A DNA stretch of 64,000 nt from positions 66,801 to 130,800 of the forward strand of contig CAWKGF010000001.1 of assembly GCA_963849135.1 (NCBI GenBank), read 5' to 3'. Under the pieces are notes generated by a model. It made no database searches. It was given only the letters and a program-made list of their open reading frames with translations, and was not told where the DNA came from. Source of the stretch: an uncultured Actinomycetes bacterium (GTDB taxonomy: Bacteria > Actinomycetota > Acidimicrobiia > IMCC26256 > PALSA-555). Positions 40,688 through 62,704 of the stretch are shown here, in pieces; the stretch's first letter is position 1, and each line of letters begins with the position of its first letter. The position numbers and the translations under genes are program-made.

Positions 40688-41554
40688 TCAGTCGTCGAGG
40701 CCGCCGGCGGCGAGGCGCGCCTCGACCTCGCGTTGCCGGGCCACGTTCTCGGTGTGGAGCTCCTCGGTGGTGCGGATCCGCCCGTCGGCCTTCAGCTCGC
40801 CCATCACGTGCACCTCCCCCAGGGTGTCGTGCAGGTAGCCGGGGCCCTCCAGGGTCGGGATGAACCAGCCGGTCGGGCACATGGTCAGCACCTCGACGAA
40901 CGAGAAGCCCTCCCGGCGCTGTTGCACCTCGAGCGCCCGGCGCACCATCTTCTTCGTGCGGGCCACCGCCCCCGCGTTGTGCACCGAGCCGCGAGCGACG
41001 TAGGCCGCACCCTCCAGGCGGGCCAGGAGGTCCCCGATCAGGATCGGGTACCCGTGGTAGGCGGCGTCGCGGCCCTCGAGGGTGTTCTTCGTGCGCTGCC
41101 CCAGCACCGTCGTCGCGGTCATGTGGCCGCCCGTCTCGCCGAACACCCCGTTGTTCAGGAGCACCCCGGTGACCGCCTCCCCGCGGGCCGCGGTGTGGAG
41201 CACCTCCTGGAGGCCCTCGTTCACCATGTCCCCGTCGCCTTGCAGCGTGAAGACCGTCGCGTCGGGGCGCATCCGCTTCACGCCGGTCGCGACCGACGGG
41301 GCCCGTCCGTGCAGCGCCTGGACGAGGTCGACGTCGAGGGCGGTGGAGAACGCGGTGTAGCAGCCGATCCCCATCACCCCGACCGTCCGGTCGGTGAGCC
41401 CCAGGTCGGTGATCGTGTCCAGCAGGCAGCGCAGCGCCAGCGGCTCGCCGCAGCCGGGGCAGAGATGGTGCTCCCCGGTCAGCAGCAGCTCCGGCTTCAG
41501 CGCGCCGACCTGTCGGGCGCCGCTCGGCGGGTGCTGGGTGTCGATCGTCACCAT
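40688..41554 (-). CDS. 2-oxoacid:ferredoxin oxidoreductase, beta (TPP-binding) subunit
   Basis: HHLCPGCGEP... and TLQGDGDMVNEGLQE (GDG TPP motif). ATG at 41554 is preceded by AAGGAG. Confidence 0.85.
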   Translation of the reverse strand: MVTIDTQHPPSGARQVGALKPELLLTGEHHLCPGCGEPLALRCLLDTITDLGLTDRTVGVMGIGCYTAFSTALDVDLVQALHGRAPSVATGVKRMRPDATVFTLQGDGDMVNEGLQEVLHTAARGEAVTGVLLNNGVFGETGGHMTATTVLGQRTKNTLEGRDAAYHGYPILIGDLLARLEGAAYVARGSVHNAGAVARTKKMVRRALEVQQRREGFSFVEVLTMCPTGWFIPTLEGPGYLHDTLGEVHVMGELKADGRIRTTEELHTENVARQREVEARLAAGGLDD

Positions 41555-56475: not shown

Positions 56476-56548
56476 GCGGACGTGGCTCAGCTGGTAGAGC
56501 ATCACCTTGCCAAGGTGAGGGTCGCGGGTTCGAATCCCGTCGTCCGCT
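56476..56548 (+). tRNA. tRNA-Gly: tRNA-Gly (anticodon GCC)
   Basis: Cloverleaf folded by hand: acceptor GCGGACG/CGTCCGC, D arm GCTC-AGCTGGTA-GAGC, anticodon arm TCACC-TTGCCAA-GGTGA, T arm GCGGG-TTCGAAT-CCCGT. The following bases are CCG, so CCA is not encoded here. Confidence 0.9.
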
Positions 56549-57729
56549 CCGAATAATCGCTGGTCAGCGGCCTCGTTCGAGGCCGCTGATGCTTCTCGGA
56601 GCTGTCGCGGATTTGCGTGGGCCGCGTGTGGGCCGCGGAGCGCGGCCCGGCGCGCTGGAAGGTGTCCTCGAGACTGGCGGCGAGGGCTTGGCGGGCGGCG
56701 GGGAACAGGTGCCCGTAGCGATCCGAGGTGACGCGGATCGTGGAGTGCCCGAGGTGGGCTTTGATCTCTTCGAGGTGTCGCCCGTCGGCGATGAGCAGCG
56801 CGGCGCAGGTGTGCCGCAGGTCATGGAAACGAAGCCGCGGGTTGAGTCCGGCATGCTCGACGGCGGGCCGGAAGTGGCGGGCGTAGAAGTTGCGATGCCG
56901 GATGGGGCCGCCTTCGGCGGCGCTGAACACGAAGCCGTCGCGGGACGGGTAGCGGCCGATGTGGGCGCCGAGCACGCCAGCGAGGAACGCGGGCAGGCCG
57001 ATGGTGCGGGGCCGCCCGGTCTTGGTGGGCCCGATCACCAGACGACCGCGCACTTCGCTGAGCGATTCGACGACGTCGAGGGTGCGGGCGAGTAGCTGCA
57101 GATGACCGACGCGCAGCGCGCCGAGCTCGCCGGCGCGCAGGCCGCCGTAGGCGGCGGTGTAGATCAGGACCCGGTAACGGTCCTCGATGGCGTCGGCGAG
57201 CTGGTTGACCTGCTCGGCGCTGAGGAACAGCATTTCTTCGCGGTTACGGTCGGAGGGCAGCTCGATGCCCCGGCACGGTGAGCGGGAGATCAGGTCGTCG
57301 ATGACGGCCTGCTCGAAGATCTGGACGGCGATCTGGTAGATCGCATGCACGCTGGCCGGCGCGAGGCCCTGGGCGACGAGGTCAGCCACCCAGGCGCGGA
57401 TATCCGACGGACGCACCCGCGCGACCGCCATATTCCCGAACGCTGGCAGCACATAGTTGCGCAGCCGTCCTTCGACGTTGACGTAGCTGCGCGGGCTCAC
57501 GCTGGCCTTGGTGCTCAGCCAGTCCGCCGCCACGACGCAGACGGGTGTGCGCGCCGAGCGCGGGGTCGATCCACTCGCCGCGACTCTTGGCGGCAAGCAC
57601 CGTGTTGAGAAACCGCTCCGCGTCGGCACGCCGAGCAAAGCTTCGGGAACGCTCCCGACCGTTGGGGTCGCGGTAGCGGGCCCGCCACACGTTGCGACCT
57701 GTGCGGCGCCGCCGCTCGATGTGAGCCAT
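56502..57729 (-). CDS. int: Tyrosine-type site-specific integrase; one frameshift near 57555; ORF runs into the tRNA
   Basis: MAHIERRRRTGRNVWRARYRDPNGRERSRSF..GEWIDPALG (one frame) continues as ARTPVCVVAADWL... in the adjacent frame. The catalytic region has GLRAGELGAL, HDLRHTCAALL, LGHSTI and SDRYGHL. No stop occurs until 56502, within the tRNA. Confidence 0.85.
56507..56550. repeat. attL: 44-bp direct repeat (3' part of tRNA-Gly), identical to 60404..60447
   Basis: ttgccaaggtgagggtcgcgggttcgaatcccgtcgtccgctcc occurs identically at both positions, compared base by base. Confidence 0.9.
56564..56589 (+). terminator. Hairpin just downstream of tRNA-Gly (element-borne)
   Basis: tcagcggcctcg-tt-cgaggccgctga, a perfect 12-bp inverted repeat starting 14 nt after the tRNA. 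It lies inside the 3' extension of the integrase ORF. Confidence 0.5.
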
Positions 57730-57868
57730 CACATCACTCCGTCGACGCACTCATGCGGTTGTGAGGGCCGCTGTATCGCCCATAGAGGCCGCTCCAGCAT
57801 CGACGTGGTAGTCGGGTACAGGAAGATTTGCTCGCGTCGCGGTCGTGCCTTGATGTGTACACCGCGCG

Positions 57869-58093
57869 TCAAGACGCGTCGCGGCGCGCCGCGAGCCACG
57901 CCTCGACATCCTCGACCCGGTAGCGAACGTGCCGGCCGACCCGATAGCCGCGCGGTCCTTCGCTGCGGGAGCGCCACCGGTACACGGTCCGCAGCGGCAC
58001 GCCCAGGAACGCGGCGACCTCATCGGGGCCGACGAGCCGCGCCGCCGACGGGCCGGCGTCGTGATGCCTGGCACCAGCGCTGTTGGGTTTCAT
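57869..58093 (-). CDS. xis: Excisionase-family DNA-binding protein (HTH_17/MerR-like)
   Basis: LVGPDEVAAFLGVPLRTVYRWRSRSEGPRGYRVGRHVRYRVEDVEAWL is the typical excisionase HTH. Met start at 58093. Confidence 0.75.
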   Translation of the reverse strand: MKPNSAGARHHDAGPSAARLVGPDEVAAFLGVPLRTVYRWRSRSEGPRGYRVGRHVRYRVEDVEAWLAARRDAS

Positions 58094-58475
58094 GTTCACG
58101 AAGCGCCTCTCTGCGATTGGGTAGTCATGCGCGAAGCCGCGCACCTACACCAAGCGCAAACCCGCACGCCGAGGGGGACACCCATCGCGAAGAAATCCGG
58201 TCTCGAACGACGCCAGCGACACGCAGTACGGGCACGGTGCGCGCCCGGACAAAACTGGTGCGGGCATATAGCGCCCCGGCGAGTCTGCTCCTCGTAGTTC
58301 ATGCGATGGTTCATGTTTTGAGGCCCGTTAGTTCAGATTCGCGTTTCTTTTCCGTCTGGGCCCGAGCGGCGGAATCTGAACTTCAGGTCGGAGGATCTGA
58401 AGTTCAGATCATCAACCGCTGTTCAGCTGGGTCGCCGATGACCCACTGGCAACCGGTAGGAGCAGGGGTCGGCTC

Positions 58476-58643
58476 ATGAACATGCCCAAGCGGTCGGTGC
58501 GGATGTCAGAAGGGGCGGGGACGCTCGAGATGGACGCCCCCGACGTCTACGCGTTGATCGGCGATCGAGGCGAGCTCAGGGCCGGCAGGGGCCGTGACGG
58601 CGTCGTCTACGTGCCCGAACAAGCTCTCCGGGGCTACCAGTAG
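58476..58643 (+). CDS. Small ORF (55 aa), possible HTH/excisionase-like protein
   Basis: Below the ORF-track cutoff, translated by hand: MNMPKRSVRMSEGAGTLEMDAPDVYALIGDRGELRAGRGRDGVVYVPEQALRGYQ. A GGAG-containing stretch (taggagcagggg) lies about 15-25 nt upstream of the ATG. Flanked by repeated GTTCAGATTCGC motifs. Weak resemblance to the ..VYRLI..GELPAxRVG.. pattern. Confidence 0.35.
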   Translation: MNMPKRSVRMSEGAGTLEMDAPDVYALIGDRGELRAGRGRDGVVYVPEQALRGYQ

Positions 58644-59077
58644 CGACACGCAACAGGATCTCGCTAGCTCGAACCGTCGGGGCCGGGAGCGGCAGTCACC
58701 AGGCGTGGCCGGCGTTGCGAACCGTGAAGTTCAGATTCGCAGGGCAGCGGACGCTGCAAGTGTGTCTCTCGCGAGATCCTGGTCGCGGGGGTCACTGGGT
58801 GTGCACGGACGGTGATGGCGAGAGCCGGGAGTTGATGCGCGAGTCCGGTTGTTCGGGAATGGCTCGGCGTGGACGCCGAGGGGTGTGGCCTATTGTCATC
58901 TCCCGCCCACGTCGCCGGGTGGTCGGAGATCGGTCGAGGTGCTGGGCCCGGGCGCCGGGGCCTCGGCTCGGCCAGTTAGCCAGCCCGAGACCGTTCCCGG
59001 AGCCGCTCGGAAGGCTAGGGTCCTACGGCATCGGATGCTCGGCGGGAAGCCCGGCCGGGAAGCGGAGGTCGTGCGGC

Positions 59078-60208
59078 ATGAGGCTGCGTCTGGCGGGTGC
59101 AGGGGTAGGCGCGGCAGCGACCGCCGTGTTGGGTGTGGTGGCGCTGGCGGTGGGCTCGGGTCCGGCGGGGGCGGCGCCGACGACGCTGTTCTCCTCGAGC
59201 ACGGCCGGGCCGCTGGTATCGGCGACCGTGCCGGCTGGCATCTGTTTCGTGACCATCAGCGCTGCAGGCGGGCATGGGGGCGCCAACAGCGACGGCAGCC
59301 AAGTCGGCGGCGCGGCGGCGAGCCTCACCGCCAGAGTGGCCGTCACCCCAGGCGAGTCCCTTACCGTCCAGGTCGGCGGCGCGGGCGCAACCGCCCCCTC
59401 GGCGACGCAGGCTGGTGCTGGCGGGATCGGCGGCGGCGGCGGCGGCGCGGCAGCGAGTCCGGCCGGCGGTGGCGGCGGTGGTGCCTCGGCGGTCAGTGGT
59501 CCTACGGGACCCCTGGTCGTCGCTGGCGGCGGCGGGGGCGGCGGGGGCGGCGTGGGCGGGGCCGGCGGAACGCTTGGAAACCCGGGCGGGAACGGCGGCA
59601 CCAACGGGTTCGCCGGAACCGAAGGCGTCGGCGGCGGCACCAACGGGGTCGGCGTCGGCGGCACTGGTGGCACCGACTTCGACGTCGCCGGCGCTGGGAG
59701 CGGCGGTGGCGTCATCGCTGGTGGCCCCGCCGCCGAGGGTGGCGGGGCCGGCGGAGGTGGTGCCAACGGGATCGGCGGGGGCGGCGGTGGTCCCGGCTCC
59801 GTGGCGAGCGCCGCCGGGACGGGCGGGACGGGCGGTGCCGCTGGTCAGATCGGCCAAGCAGGAACCGCCAGCCCCTTGATCAACGGCAACGGCGGGGTCG
59901 GCAATGACAGCGGCGGCAACGCCGGGGTTGCCGGTGGTGCCGGTGGCGGCGGGGGCGGCGGTGGCGGGATCGGCTTCGGCGGCGGCGGCGCCGCCCTCGA
60001 AGCTGGGGGCGGCGGGGGTGGCGCCGGGTATGGGGCCGGGGGTGGCGGCCTTGGCGGTGGCGGCGGGGGCTCCTCGTTCGAGGTGCCCGGTGCGACGAAC
60101 GTCGTTCCTCCGGTGCTCAGCGGGAGCAGTCAGGTGACTATCAGCTACGACCCGAGCACCGACAGCTGCCCGACTGCGCTGGTCGTGGCTCCAAGTTTCA
60201 CCGGATAA
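59078..60208 (+). CDS. Secreted glycine-rich domain protein (element cargo)
   Basis: Signal peptide MRLRLAGAGVGAAATAVLGVVALAVGSGPAGAAP. The core (ICFVTISAAGGHGGAN...SLTARVAVTPGESLTVQVGGAG...PLVVAGGGGGGG) resembles the glycine-rich domain family (Gly_rich-type). Cys-containing C-terminus. Confidence 0.7.
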   Translation: MRLRLAGAGVGAAATAVLGVVALAVGSGPAGAAPTTLFSSSTAGPLVSATVPAGICFVTISAAGGHGGANSDGSQVGGAAASLTARVAVTPGESLTVQVGGAGATAPSATQAGAGGIGGGGGGAAASPAGGGGGGASAVSGPTGPLVVAGGGGGGGGGVGGAGGTLGNPGGNGGTNGFAGTEGVGGGTNGVGVGGTGGTDFDVAGAGSGGGVIAGGPAAEGGGAGGGGANGIGGGGGGPGSVASAAGTGGTGGAAGQIGQAGTASPLINGNGGVGNDSGGNAGVAGGAGGGGGGGGGIGFGGGGAALEAGGGGGGAGYGAGGGGLGGGGGGSSFEVPGATNVVPPVLSGSSQVTISYDPSTDSCPTALVVAPSFTG

Positions 60209-60403
60209 GTACCGGGCCTACAACGGGGATGGCGCGACGCTCACGCATGTTGCGTGTGGTCGCTGGTTTCCGCTGATCCAAGCTGTTGGGCCGCGAGTGG
60301 GCCGCGGAAGGTCACGAAACATCGACATTCACCGCCAGCTGTTGACAGACGTCTGTGCTGGTCACCCCGGATCTTGGCTGATCACGTCTCCGCATCGGTC
60401 GGA

Positions 60404-60447
60404 TTGCCAAGGTGAGGGTCGCGGGTTCGAATCCCGTCGTCCGCTCC
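60404..60447. repeat. attR: displaced original 3' end of tRNA-Gly (44-bp copy), here followed by A so that CCA is encoded
   Basis: Identical to 56507..56550. The sequence continues ..cgtccgctCCA at attR but ..cgtccgctCCG at attL. Confidence 0.9.
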
Positions 60448-60460
60448 AAGAAGTGCTGGT

Positions 60461-60484
60461 CAGGCCTTCGTTCTCGGAGGCCTG
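60461..60484 (+). terminator. Hairpin after the displaced tRNA 3' end (probable ancestral tRNA terminator)
   Basis: caggccttcg-ttct-cggaggcctg, a 10-bp stem with one G-U pair. Its position and flanking gctggtcag are homologous to the hairpin at 56564..56589. Confidence 0.5.
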
Positions 60485-60526
60485 TCGCATTCTCGGGCGG
60501 GTCGTGTCCATCCACTGTCCATCCCC

Positions 60527-60572
60527 GGTGTCGGTACCGGGTCTTGACAGGTGTCGGTACCGGGTCTTGACA
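60527..60572. repeat. Perfect 23-bp tandem direct repeat x2 (ggtgtcggtaccgggtcttgaca)
   Basis: Read directly from the sequence. Each unit contains the palindrome CGGTACCG and a TTGACA hexamer. A partial third unit (tgtcgg) follows. Confidence 0.9.
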
Positions 60573-60602
60573 TGTCGGCAGCGGGGAGACGTGCTGGGCG
60601 CG

Positions 60603-60911
60603 TCAAGGTCTGTTGTCCCACCGGGTCATTTTGGTGAGGGTGGGGTCCATGATCAGCTGCAAGGCGTTCTGGGCCATCACGTTGGACGCGACACGCGCCT
60701 GCCAGCCGAGAACGGCCTCGGTCCAGTCCTGCGTCGAGACGCCCGCCCGCTCTGCGTTCGTGGCGGTCACGTTGCCGCCGGCACCGGCCCGCGGGATCTG
60801 GGTCACCTGGACGTAGGTCTGGAGGCTGACCCCGTTGATCGGCTGCAACTCGGGGCTGTCCCAATCGATCCCCCACTTTTGCTCCGGAGTACGCCTACGG
60901 AATAGACCCAT
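60603..60911 (-). CDS. Hypothetical protein (102 aa)
   Basis: ATG start and good GC3 coding bias when translated by hand. No family recognised. Confidence 0.55.
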   Translation of the reverse strand: MGLFRRRTPEQKWGIDWDSPELQPINGVSLQTYVQVTQIPRAGAGGNVTATNAERAGVSTQDWTEAVLGWQARVASNVMAQNALQLIMDPTLTKMTRWDNRP

Positions 60912-61009
60912 GACCCCTCCCTTGCGGTGGTCGTGGCGCGAGCCGCGTCAAGCGGCGCGCCGCCAACATGATCGCAGCCACCCAACGCAGAGTCCTGAGT
61001 AGACGCTAC

Positions 61010-61255
61010 TCAGACCAGCAGGCCAGGCACCGGCTCCGGGGGCACAGCGGCGTCTCTCGTCACCAAGTCATGGTCGAGGAGGAGGAAGAAAAAGAACAAG
61101 AAGCTCACGAACACGAAGACGATGATCAGCATCGTCGTGATGATCACGAAGAGGGCGACGAGCAGGGCGACGAAGACGACGGGCAGCAAGGGCATGAACA
61201 AGAACAGCCGGCAGGCGCGGGAGAGCCCCGGTTCCGGGTACCTCATCGCCGGCAT
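61010..61255 (-). CDS. Small, extremely hydrophobic membrane protein (81 aa)
   Basis: About 43 consecutive hydrophobic residues (LFLFMPLLPVVFVALLVALFVIITTMLIIVFVFVSFLFFFFLLL). Minus-strand codons are GC3-rich (TTC, GTC, CTG, ATC), whereas the overlapping plus-strand acidic ORF uses GAA/GAT. A hairpin overlaps the stop codon. Confidence 0.6.
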   Translation of the reverse strand: MPAMRYPEPGLSRACRLFLFMPLLPVVFVALLVALFVIITTMLIIVFVFVSFLFFFFLLLDHDLVTRDAAVPPEPVPGLLV

Positions 61256-61294
61256 CAGGACTTCTCTCGCCCGGTGAGGGTCTTGAGAACGCCT

Positions 61295-61391
61295 GTAAAC
61301 GATCGTTTATAAGGGGTGGGTGTAAGCGTTCGTTTTCAGTTGGCACATGTAAACGAACGTATACAATAGATAATTGTAAACGCTCGCTTAC
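61295..61391. promoter_or_regulatory. Array of four 16-bp pseudo-palindromic operators (consensus GTAAACGnnCGTTTAC) with exact 27-bp phasing
   Basis: GTAAACGATCGTTTAT (61295), GTAAGCGTTCGTTTTC (61322), GTAAACGAACGTATAC (61349) and GTAAACGCTCGCTTAC (61376). They lie in an AT-rich divergent region between the 81-aa membrane ORF and the XRE/HipB-like gene. Confidence 0.8.
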
Positions 61392-61395
61392 ACTA

Positions 61396-61716
61396 TTGAA
61401 ATCGCTCCAAAATTCCGCCCAAAAGGGACATCGCGAAAATCAGCTCGCCCCACGACCTCGCGGTGGCCGCCCGCAGCCGACGCCAGGACCTCGGCCTGAT
61501 GCAGACCGAGCTGGCGTCGCAGGCCGGGGTCTCCCGTCTCTGGCTCAACCAGATCGAGGGCGGGCAAGCCAACCGCCGAATTCAGCCTCGTGATCCGCCT
61601 CGTTGACGCTCTTGGCCTCCGTCTTGAGCTGCACAGGGGACGACGTCCGCGGCGACGACGCCTTCCCGCCATCGCGAGATCTCGACAAGGTACTTAGGGA
61701 CTACCGCAACCGATGA
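61396..61716 (+). pseudogene. XRE-family HTH, HipB-like antitoxin gene, frame broken about three times
   Basis: Joining frames gives MKSLQNSAQKGHRE / ISSPHDLAVAARSRRQDLGLMQTELASQAGVSRLWLNQIEGG / KPTAEFSLVIRLVDALGLRLELHR / DDVRGDDAFPPSRDLDKVLRDYRNR*. The breaks lie near 61436 (A-run), 61563 and 61640. The stop overlaps the next ATG (ATGA). Confidence 0.6.
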
Positions 61717-61835
61717 CCGACCCACTCGTCGCCATCCTCGAGACGCCCGTGGACGCCTCCGCTTCGACTATGCGGACGCCGAGGGAGCTATGCCGTCGGC
61801 GGTGGCTATTCCTCATTCCAGTCATTGATCACGAC
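61713..61835 (+). pseudogene. HipA-family toxin gene remnant (N-terminal 40 or so codons only, frameshifted)
   Basis: MTDPLVAIL.. then, one frame over, DARGRLRFDYADAEGAMPSAVAIPHSSH*. This resembles the HipA N-terminal coupling domain (L.V.L.g..vG.L.F.Y). The kinase body is absent, since the next gene starts at 61961. Confidence 0.5.
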
Positions 61836-61960
61836 GCGGGTTTGGGCCAGGGATCAGAAGATGTTGAAATAGTGCTCAAGCGACATCCCGAGCAGTGACG
61901 CGTTACCCAGGCCACAGGCGCGGTGCGGGGGCGACCGTGACCGGTCAGAGAGGCGGTGTC

Positions 61961-62704
61961 ATGTCCAACGCGCAGTTGTACGACACCATCGGAGCCACCT
62001 ACACCGTGACCCGTCGCACCGAGCCGCGGATCGCCGCGCGGATCTGGGCTGCGCTCGGCGATGCCCGGACAGTACTGAACGTCGGGGCGGGCACCGGGTC
62101 CTACGAGCCCCCCGACCGCCACGTCCTCGCGGTGGAACCGTCGGCGCTCATGCGTTCGCAGCGCCTCCCTGACGCGGCGCCGTGCCTGGCTGCATCTGCC
62201 GAGAACCTGCCGTTCGATGACCAGTCCTTCGACGCCGCGATGGCTTTTTCCACCGTTCATCACTGGCAGGACCCGATCGCCGGCCTGCGCGAGATGCGGC
62301 GCGTTGCTCGCCGCGTGGTGGTGTTCACGTTCGACACCAGTGTCCCTAGCCAGTTCTGGCTGACTCGTGACTACCTGCCCGAGTTCGCTGCCTTGAGAGC
62401 CTGCAGAGTCTTGGCATCGCTGACCGAGCTGGCCCGCGCGATCGGAGCCCAGATGGAACCGGTGCCCATCCCGTGGGACTGCGCTGACGGCTTCTTCGAG
62501 GCCTACTGGCGCCGGCCCGAGGCATACCTGGACGAGAATGTGCGTCGCGGAATATCGGTCTGGGCCACAGTCGGGCCGGATGCCGAGCAGAGGGCAGTGC
62601 ACAGCCTCCGCAATGACCTCACCTCAGGTCGGTGGGCCGAACGCAACCGCGACCTCGTCGATCTCGACGCAGCAGAGCTTGGTGCGCGCCTGCTTATCGC
62701 CTGA
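61961..62704 (+). CDS. Class I SAM-dependent methyltransferase
   Basis: VLNVGAGTGSYEP (motif I), LPFDDQSFDAAMAFSTVHHW and REMRRVARRVVVF. Confidence 0.8.
   Translation: MSNAQLYDTIGATYTVTRRTEPRIAARIWAALGDARTVLNVGAGTGSYEPPDRHVLAVEPSALMRSQRLPDAAPCLAASAENLPFDDQSFDAAMAFSTVHHWQDPIAGLREMRRVARRVVVFTFDTSVPSQFWLTRDYLPEFAALRACRVLASLTELARAIGAQMEPVPIPWDCADGFFEAYWRRPEAYLDENVRRGISVWATVGPDAEQRAVHSLRNDLTSGRWAERNRDLVDLDAAELGARLLIA

Follow-up and report, generated by a model that had tools for sequence, protein, structure and literature searches.

Organization of the locus

The window, namely the whole 64-kb stretch of DNA analyzed here, contains four near-palindromic 16-mers which, upon direct reading of the region 60600-62400, start at positions 61295, 61322, 61349, and 61376. 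As every one of them is flanked by a T at its 5' end and by an A at its 3' end, the natural unit is an 18-mer of the form TGTAAACG-NN-CGTTTACA. The start-to-start intervals between these units are 27, 27, and 27 bp, with spacers of 9 bp, thereby confirming the four T-preceded palindromes in exact 27-bp register that had been described in a previous, sequence-only reading of this DNA. Operator 1 (61294-61311) reads TGTAAACGATCGTTTATA, and operator 2 (61321-61338; TGTAAGCGTTCGTTTTCA) is the most degenerate of the four. Operator 3 (61348-61365; TGTAAACGAACGTATACA) is located between the -35 and -10 elements of a predicted promoter and overlaps the -10, while operator 4 (61375-61392; TGTAAACGCTCGCTTACA) begins 8 bp past this predicted -10. 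In the same line, a repeat finder reported spacings of 27 and 27 for a 45-nt reference copy, together with many inverted-repeat pairings among the four sites.

The array stands out from the remainder of the window in terms of both motif content and base composition. A search of the 64 kb for GTAAACGNNCGTTTAC, allowing up to 3 mismatches, returned 5 matches, four of which constitute the array (1-2 mismatches each), whereas 0.41 would be expected by chance and 5 matches were attained in 0 of 100 shuffles. The possibility that the motif is a dispersed repeat was considered and set aside, given that a single additional match, with 3 mismatches, occurs in the window and that searches based on the DNA motif only, described below, return hipB promoters. 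Besides, the GC content of the array is 38% compared to 71% for the window overall, and the array corresponds to the lowest-GC 100 bp of the window, in agreement with the earlier description of this segment as the most AT-rich one. Regarding its geometry, a 27-bp period represents 2.57 helical turns, so that on straight DNA the angle between adjacent dimers would be about 206 degrees. Neighboring predicted HipB dimers might thus lie on roughly opposite faces of the helix, as suggested in the sequence-only reading, this geometry being only nominal in view of the bending of DNA by HipB, which is strong in the solved complexes (PMC3920265, PMC4150777).

On one side of the array, an 81-aa hydrophobic ORF is encoded divergently on the reverse strand (61010-61255), with its ATG 38 bp from operator 1. 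With a GC3 of 0.91 and a GC2 of 0.34, this ORF may be a real small membrane protein. In the nearest intact relative of the locus, hereafter L001, the ORF is split by two 1-bp indels and its amino-acid sequence is conserved in pieces. The 81-aa ORF was also considered as a component of the module associated with the array, and this was rejected, as similar divergent hydrophobic ORFs were found only in the loci L017 and L044 among about 80 other loci. Further along the same strand, a divergent gene of 102 aa with a weak DUF6620 match (60603-60911) is syntenic with the intact ortholog locus.

A decayed hipBA module and its intact relative

On the other side, three-frame translation reveals a helix-turn-helix protein of the XRE type downstream of the array, whose coding sequence is split over three frames. 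Ortholog alignment and profile matches delimit it as a hipB-like antitoxin pseudogene on the forward strand (XRE HTH, TIGR03070/Y4mF type; 61433-61716), a Shine-Dalgarno-like AAGGGA being present at 61423-61428. The position of the start codon (61433-61435), 41 bp past site 4, is occupied by GCG in the window versus GTG in L001, and nucleotide alignment to L001 further indicates single-G (+1) insertions near 61562 and 61631. The TTG at 61396, which had been put forward as a putative start 5 bp past the end of site 4, has to be abandoned: its frame is not that of the HTH, and the start of the ortholog aligns to 61433. Downstream, a hipA remnant (61713-61775, forward strand) was recognized by nucleotide alignment to L001, its ATGA start overlapping the hipB stop. 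It carries a 28-bp internal deletion after 61738, and homology to intact hipA stops at 61775, meaning that about 60 nt of hipA are left and that the window copy lacks the downstream HipA toxin of a HipBA module. The array had been described as filling the divergent region between the gene for the 81-aa protein and an XRE/HipB-like gene; this holds as far as the 81-aa ORF is concerned, which looks coding, whereas the XRE/HipB-like gene is a pseudogene followed by a hipA that has been almost wholly deleted.

Once reconstructed, the window protein matches the Pfam families HTH_31 and HTH_3, and its best NCBIfam match is TIGR03070 (couple_hipB; 60.8 bits, E = 9e-17), which is below the cut-off because the window copy is damaged. 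A protein search identified an intact relative, P0001, a HipB of 93 aa with 88% identity to the reconstructed protein, which reaches 73.2 bits against TIGR03070, above the cut-off of 71.65, and which, along its whole length, shares 32% identity with the E. coli HipB. L001, the contig encoding P0001, belongs to the metagenome-assembled genome of the uncultured Actinomycetes bacterium MFD02248.bin.2.1, the nearest relative. In this contig, hipB is followed, through an ATGA overlap, by a gene coding for a 429-aa HipA with Couple_hipA and HipA_C domains, which shows 33% identity to the E. coli HipA (E = 1e-49). This ortholog HipA carries a glycine where the E. coli HipA has G22, the residue of hipA7.

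The array of L001 consists of the same four sites with the same spacing as in the window, operator 1 being there a perfect palindrome, TGTAAACGATCGTTTACA. Between the two loci, 3 of 72 positions differ in the sites versus 6 of 27 in the spacers, so that the sites are better conserved (Fisher p = 0.012). Homology between the window and L001 is confined to 60444-61775. Just past the hipA truncation, the stretch 61776-61960 is relatively AT-rich (51-53% GC) and without homology to L001; it is followed by a class I SAM methyltransferase gene (about 61961-62704).

Taken together, these data indicate that the window holds a decayed member of the HipBA type II toxin-antitoxin modules, and that the array is a recent relic, given that the hipB start is lost, that two frameshifts have accumulated, and that hipA is deleted beyond its first 60 nt or so. 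Sequencing errors may account for the two +1 G insertions, and the neighboring integrase gene is likewise split across frames. Considering the damage as pure sequencing error was nevertheless rejected, as this would leave unexplained the substitution in the start codon, the 28-bp deletion, and the loss of homology at 61775.

With its own repressor gene inactivated, the array may no longer serve any function in this genome; it would do so only if its sites were recognized by a paralogous HipB whose gene lies elsewhere in the genome. One can then ask whether the array is still at work, bound in trans by a paralogous HipB from outside the window whose recognition helix carries the leucine or proline discussed below, and regulating the leftover transcript or the divergent small gene. 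In favor of this, the sites have remained almost intact and, in the comparison with L001, have changed less than the spacers; moreover, in Caulobacter, where hipBA paralogs share identical inverted repeats, cross-regulation between them has been proposed (PMC7029023). However, neither a second array site nor another hipB-like gene is found within the 64-kb window, the conservation of the sites is explicable by recent decay together with selection in the L001 lineage, and the C that would complete the palindrome is already gone from site 1. Continued function in trans therefore appears quite unlikely, and the array is here regarded as the relic of a hipBA promoter.

Conservation of the array across related loci

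In order to place the array in a broader context, 80 loci encoding relatives at 47-99% identity were fetched. Their hosts include Solirubrobacterales, Acidimicrobiales, Streptosporangiaceae, Kribbella, and one Limnocylindrales genome. In nearly all of them, the upstream regions contain 18-bp palindromes of the form TG-NNNN-CG-NN-CG-NNNN-CA. When sites were detected with a loose palindrome-plus-core score, comparing the 200 bp upstream with the remainder of the 80 loci, their density was 13.9 per kb in the former versus 0.96 per kb in the latter. The distance between neighboring sites is exactly 27 bp in 125 of 149 cases and 54 bp in 14 of 149. An independent, motif-free measure, the lag autocorrelation of base identity over 77 non-identical upstream regions of 140 bp, peaks only at lags 27 (0.449) and 54 (0.39) above a background of about 0.25, and no comparable lag peak was detected in coding and far-upstream control regions. 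Conservation of the 27-bp phasing in homologous loci, a check that had been proposed along with the array, is thus borne out both by these neighboring pairs and by the autocorrelation peak at lag 27.

The number of sites per array varies from 2 to 5, three being present in 37 loci and four in 30. The hipA gene directly follows hipB in 74 of 80 loci, at least 3 of the 6 exceptions being at contig ends, and the array is found upstream of more than 70 homologous hipB-hipA operons with differing upstream neighbors. Judged from these upstream regions, many Actinomycetota from soil share the 27-bp layout. A tblastn search of the PLSDB plasmids with the ortholog HipB gave no match at 1e-8.

At the protein level, alignment of P0001-P0006 shows that a C-terminal (S/R)xDLDxxLxxYR is invariant or nearly so in the HipB family, while the preceding linker is variable. 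By analogy with the C-terminus of the E. coli HipB, this motif is a candidate HipA-docking or degradation tag.

Co-variation between HipB and the operators

The identity of the protein that would bind the array can be addressed by comparing half-sites and repressors. Among 70 non-identical proteins, the half-site positions 1, 2, 7, and 8 (TG...CG) are essentially invariant, and positions 3-6 co-vary with the first residue of the recognition helix after a conserved VSR. When this residue is K, positions 3-6 read CCAC, CTAC, or ACAC; when it is P or L, L being the residue of the window clade, they read TAAA, TAAC, or TAGC. A D at this position is associated with TCGA, an E with TGGA or TGTA, a Q or an A with TCGn, and an H with TTCA. 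For instance, the helix VSRLWLN would correspond to TGTAAACG operators and the helix VSRKWIY to TGCCACCG operators. The mutual information amounts to 0.77-1.03 bits at positions 3-6, a level reached in 0 of 2000 shuffles that ignored phylogeny and thereby overstate the significance, and is about 0 at the invariant positions. Besides, a further position of the helix (S or N versus Y) tracks base 3 of the half-site.

In structural terms, the variable residue after VSR corresponds in the alignment to Ala40 of the E. coli HipB, where the recognition helix of that protein begins, and the family profile matches the solved HipB chains 8ezt, 5k98, 2wiu, and 4yg4, as well as the 434 repressor and Cro. 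Such a co-variation is the pattern that repressor-operator co-evolution would predict, and the sequence comparison strongly supports this reading; binding by an unrelated protein would be hard to reconcile with it.

The association was also found in the opposite direction, i.e., starting from the DNA without any protein reference. Metagenome contigs were scanned for TGTAANCGNNCGNTTACA-N9-TGTAANCG, two sites 27 bp apart, which yielded 21 loci. An ORF of the HipB family lies beside the array in 12 of the 21 (hmmsearch E-values from 7e-8 to 1e-32), and 4 of the 21 contain the first codons of a hipB-family gene before the contig ends or a junction is reached. The other 5 comprise three arrays at contig ends, one half array joined to unrelated DNA, and one promoter of a different toxin-antitoxin system. 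A similar DNA-only scan of viral contigs gave one locus, with a HipB-family ORF. The scan of other genomes that had been suggested as a check therefore recovers hipB-family genes almost exclusively. In the locus L103 (700-1000), a single palindrome, TGTAATCGAACGATTACA, and a half-site 27 bp away are located upstream of a HigB/RelE-like 'killer' gene, which belongs to a different type of toxin-antitoxin system; the same operator letters may be used there by another family of XRE antitoxins.

These results bear on whether the palindromes could be the sites of another regulator, for example of the LacI/CcpA or TetR type, controlling the intergenic region or the 81-aa gene rather than hipB. In favor of this, TGTAAACG resembles half of a cre/LacI-type box, and literature matches to this string are mostly primers and cre boxes; moreover, the array is situated in a divergent region beside a plausible small gene. 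The likeness to the CcpA/LacI cre box (TGTAAGCGCTTACA-like) lies in the half-site letters TGTAA(A/G)CG and is one of letters only. Operators of the LacI/CcpA cre type are palindromes of 14-16 bp, 14 bp for the cre box itself, built around one central CG and recognized by a LacI-family protein, whereas the window sites are 18 bp in length with a CG-NN-CG core, i.e., two CG dinucleotides 2 nt apart, and neither a LacI nor a TetR gene is adjacent; a cre-type site was therefore rejected. Furthermore, the array follows hipB through more than 70 loci despite the differing upstream neighbors, its variable bases co-vary with the HipB recognition helix, and the DNA-only scans recover hipB. Control by such another regulator is thus very unlikely, and HipB is retained as the predicted binder.

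Proximity to a tRNA-Gly integration hotspot

The surroundings of the array also include the traces of a mobile element. The last 44 bp of a tRNA-Gly (56507-56550) are repeated exactly at 60404-60447, and these two 44-bp repeats bracket an integrative element of about 3.9 kb (region 56476-60447). It encodes, on the reverse strand, a tyrosine integrase (56502-57638), the N-terminal part of which is in another frame (57382-57750), and an HTH_17 excisionase-like gene (57869-58144), as well as a glycine-rich ORF of 497 aa (58715-60208). The left end of the homology with L001 coincides with the end of the right 44-bp repeat, and the hipBA relic is therefore located just outside this integration hotspot. 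Elsewhere in the window, a 'tRNA-???' whose anticodon would have four bases (cgcg) is called by ARAGORN at 40699-40791, amid long ORFs; this call is probably a false positive.

In the metagenomic contigs, one hipB array is encountered in several junction variants. It is intact in L090 (4954-5407) and in L106 (2480-3039), is joined to a tRNA 3' end after 10 hipB codons in L088 (386-520), and is cut through its middle by the junction in L091 (1118-1192). In L106, an IMG/VR contig, a tRNA fragment is found about 70 bp upstream of the array, and HipA was not detected in this contig by tblastn. These observations suggest that the hipB(A) family is often at the edge of tRNA-integrated elements.

This proximity raises the question of whether the repeats might be iterons, or arm-type sites of the recombinase of the element integrated at the tRNA-Gly. 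The array is about 850 bp from the right att-like 44-bp repeat of an element that encodes an integrase and an excisionase, in L088 and L106 tRNA fragments are found some 70 bp away from related arrays, and an even spacing is typical of iterons. Such a role is nonetheless scarcely credible: the sites are palindromes, hence inverted rather than direct repeats, the array is outside the att-bounded element, nearly all of the 80 loci keep it immediately 5' of hipB with a promoter embedded in it, and it travels and co-varies with HipB and not with the integrase. An origin as operators of a hipBA promoter thus remains the preferred reading, and the layout of this promoter is considered below.

Promoter layout and proposed mechanism

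A sigma-70-type promoter is predicted on the forward strand at 61340-61367, composed of TTGGCA (61340-61345), a 16-nt spacer, and TACAAT (61362-61367). With 10 of 12 consensus matches, it is the only such site in 60900-61800. By homology with the family, an alternative -10 would be the GATAAT located in spacer 3 (61369-61374). An extended -10, TGnTAnnnT, is indeed present in one of the 9-bp spacers in 52 of 73 non-redundant arrays, with T at position 1 in 47 of the 52 and G at position 2 in 38 of the 52, a clear spacer -10 being absent in the other 21 of the 73 under the criteria used. The operator that precedes the -10 spacer begins with (T)TG, thereby providing a -35-like TTGnnn 16 nt upstream, and past the -10 the array continues with one or two operators. 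In the family, 6-15 bp usually separate the end of the last site from the start codon, compared to 38-41 bp in the window clade, and the best promoter match of the window is shifted by about 7 bp with respect to the family pattern. Due to this longer gap and this shift, the details of occlusion may differ in the window clade.

Considering the homologous arrays, the conserved register, and the co-variation with the recognition helix, the array very probably comprises the operators through which a hipBA type II toxin-antitoxin promoter is autoregulated. This upholds the initial proposal that the palindromes are the operators of the adjacent XRE/HipB-like repressor, analogous to those of the E. 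coli hipBA. In the predicted mechanism, one HipB-like XRE dimer would bind each 18-bp palindrome TG-NNNN-CG-NN-CG-NNNN-CA, the three to five sites being arranged head to tail with 9-bp spacers so that a 27-bp period would run across the promoter. Site 3 would fill the interval between the -35 and the -10 under either choice of -10, and site 4 would cover the expected transcription start and the 5' UTR. Occupation of every site by HipB would then occlude the RNA polymerase and shut off hipBA. By analogy with E. coli, the bound form is probably HipA2HipB2, with HipA acting as a co-repressor.

A more speculative and on the whole improbable extension can be envisaged. The uniform 27-bp register, in which 3-5 operators follow one another without any shift of phase, might give rise to a continuous filament of HipA2HipB2, in which the internal HipA kinases would be locked by dimerization with their neighbors and the number of operators would set the extent of toxin sequestration. 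The classes of helix and half-site (K, P/L, D, E, Q, H) would at the same time represent orthogonal repressor-operator pairs that prevent cross-talk between mobile hipBA modules.

Significance

Existing knowledge of hipBA regulation is unchanged by this finding, whose added value resides in the family-wide 27-bp register and in the clear co-variation between operator and recognition helix. It reveals how the operators read and how the promoter is arranged in a large HipBA clade of uncultured soil bacteria, covering Thermoleophilia, Acidimicrobiia, Actinomycetes, and one Chloroflexota genome. In the literature searched, no description of the operators of actinobacterial HipBA was found. The approximately 70 natural repressor-operator pairs, in which four half-site bases shift together with one or two helix residues, constitute a dataset for the recognition code of XRE/HipB proteins and for the building of orthogonal repressors. 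In terms of annotation, the locus of the window is to be described as a toxin-antitoxin module that has decayed and that borders on a tRNA-Gly integration hotspot. Finally, as the 27-bp period is nearly that of the 28-bp operator pairs of E. coli, it lends itself naturally to testing whether HipA-HipA contacts that depend on spacing occur in HipBA generally.

Comparison with known systems

The closest parallel is the hipBA operon of E. coli K-12, where the operator TATCC-N8-GGATA is located four times upstream of hipB, with start-to-start distances of 28, 39, and 28 bp, in agreement with the published separations of 10, 21, and 10 bp (PMC4150777). As in the window, four 18-bp palindromic operators lie upstream of hipB-hipA and span the promoter, a TATAAT hexamer being present in the O3-O4 spacer of E. 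coli. The O1-O2 and O3-O4 pairs are spaced by 28 bp compared to 27 bp in the window array, and the proteins are homologous, the repressor XRE HTH being 32% identical and HipA 33% identical. The E. coli HipB binds cooperatively, with HipA as a co-repressor (PMC3920265), and, according to secondary citations, HipA dimerizes within the HipA/HipB/operator complexes of E. coli (PMC7029023), the contact being described as one between complexes on neighboring operators about 28 bp apart.

On the other hand, the half-sites differ, as had been noticed from the outset: the window reads TGTAAACG-NN-CGTTTACA, with CG-NN-CG at its center, instead of TATCC-N8-GGATA, for an equal total length of 18 bp. The spacing is 28/39/28 bp in E. 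coli versus a uniform 27/27/27 in the window, and the four sites are fixed in number there, whereas they vary from 2 to 5 in the present family. In addition, the hosts of the window family are Actinomycetota, and the window copy is a pseudogene. The perfectly regular spacing pointed out in the sequence-only reading is therefore real, but less unusual than was implied, since the E. coli pairs are 28 bp apart and the operators of Shewanella are equally spaced.

In Shewanella oneidensis MR-1, the hipBA operon possesses four such equally spaced operators, GTGTA-N6-TACAC, and ternary complexes of HipB, HipA, and DNA are formed, without cooperativity of HipB between adjacent operators (PMC4150777). 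Cooperative binding of four dimers, deduced from the regular spacing in the sequence-only reading, would hence not necessarily take place on the window array. Compared to the window, these operators are 16 bp long and 34 bp apart, corresponding to a 50-bp period, and the fourth one is inside the hipB reading frame.

A more distant likeness exists with the OR1-OR3 operators of the phage 434 and lambda Cro/cI systems, in which HTH dimers of the XRE/Cro fold also occupy several adjacent palindromes overlapping promoters. These phage operators differ in that they serve a switch between two divergent promoters, with differing affinities, without a toxin partner, and without a fixed 27-bp register.

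Finally, the inverted repeats of hipBA1 and hipBA2 in Caulobacter crescentus occur at intervals that are said to fit the higher-order HipA/HipB/promoter complex of E. coli (PMC7029023). There, as for the window array, the link between repeats and complex is deduced from sequence only, whereas the host is proteobacterial and the repeat sequence is another one. The Caulobacter paralogs share identical repeats, which suggests crosstalk between them, while in the family of the window the operator classes diverge together with the recognition helix.
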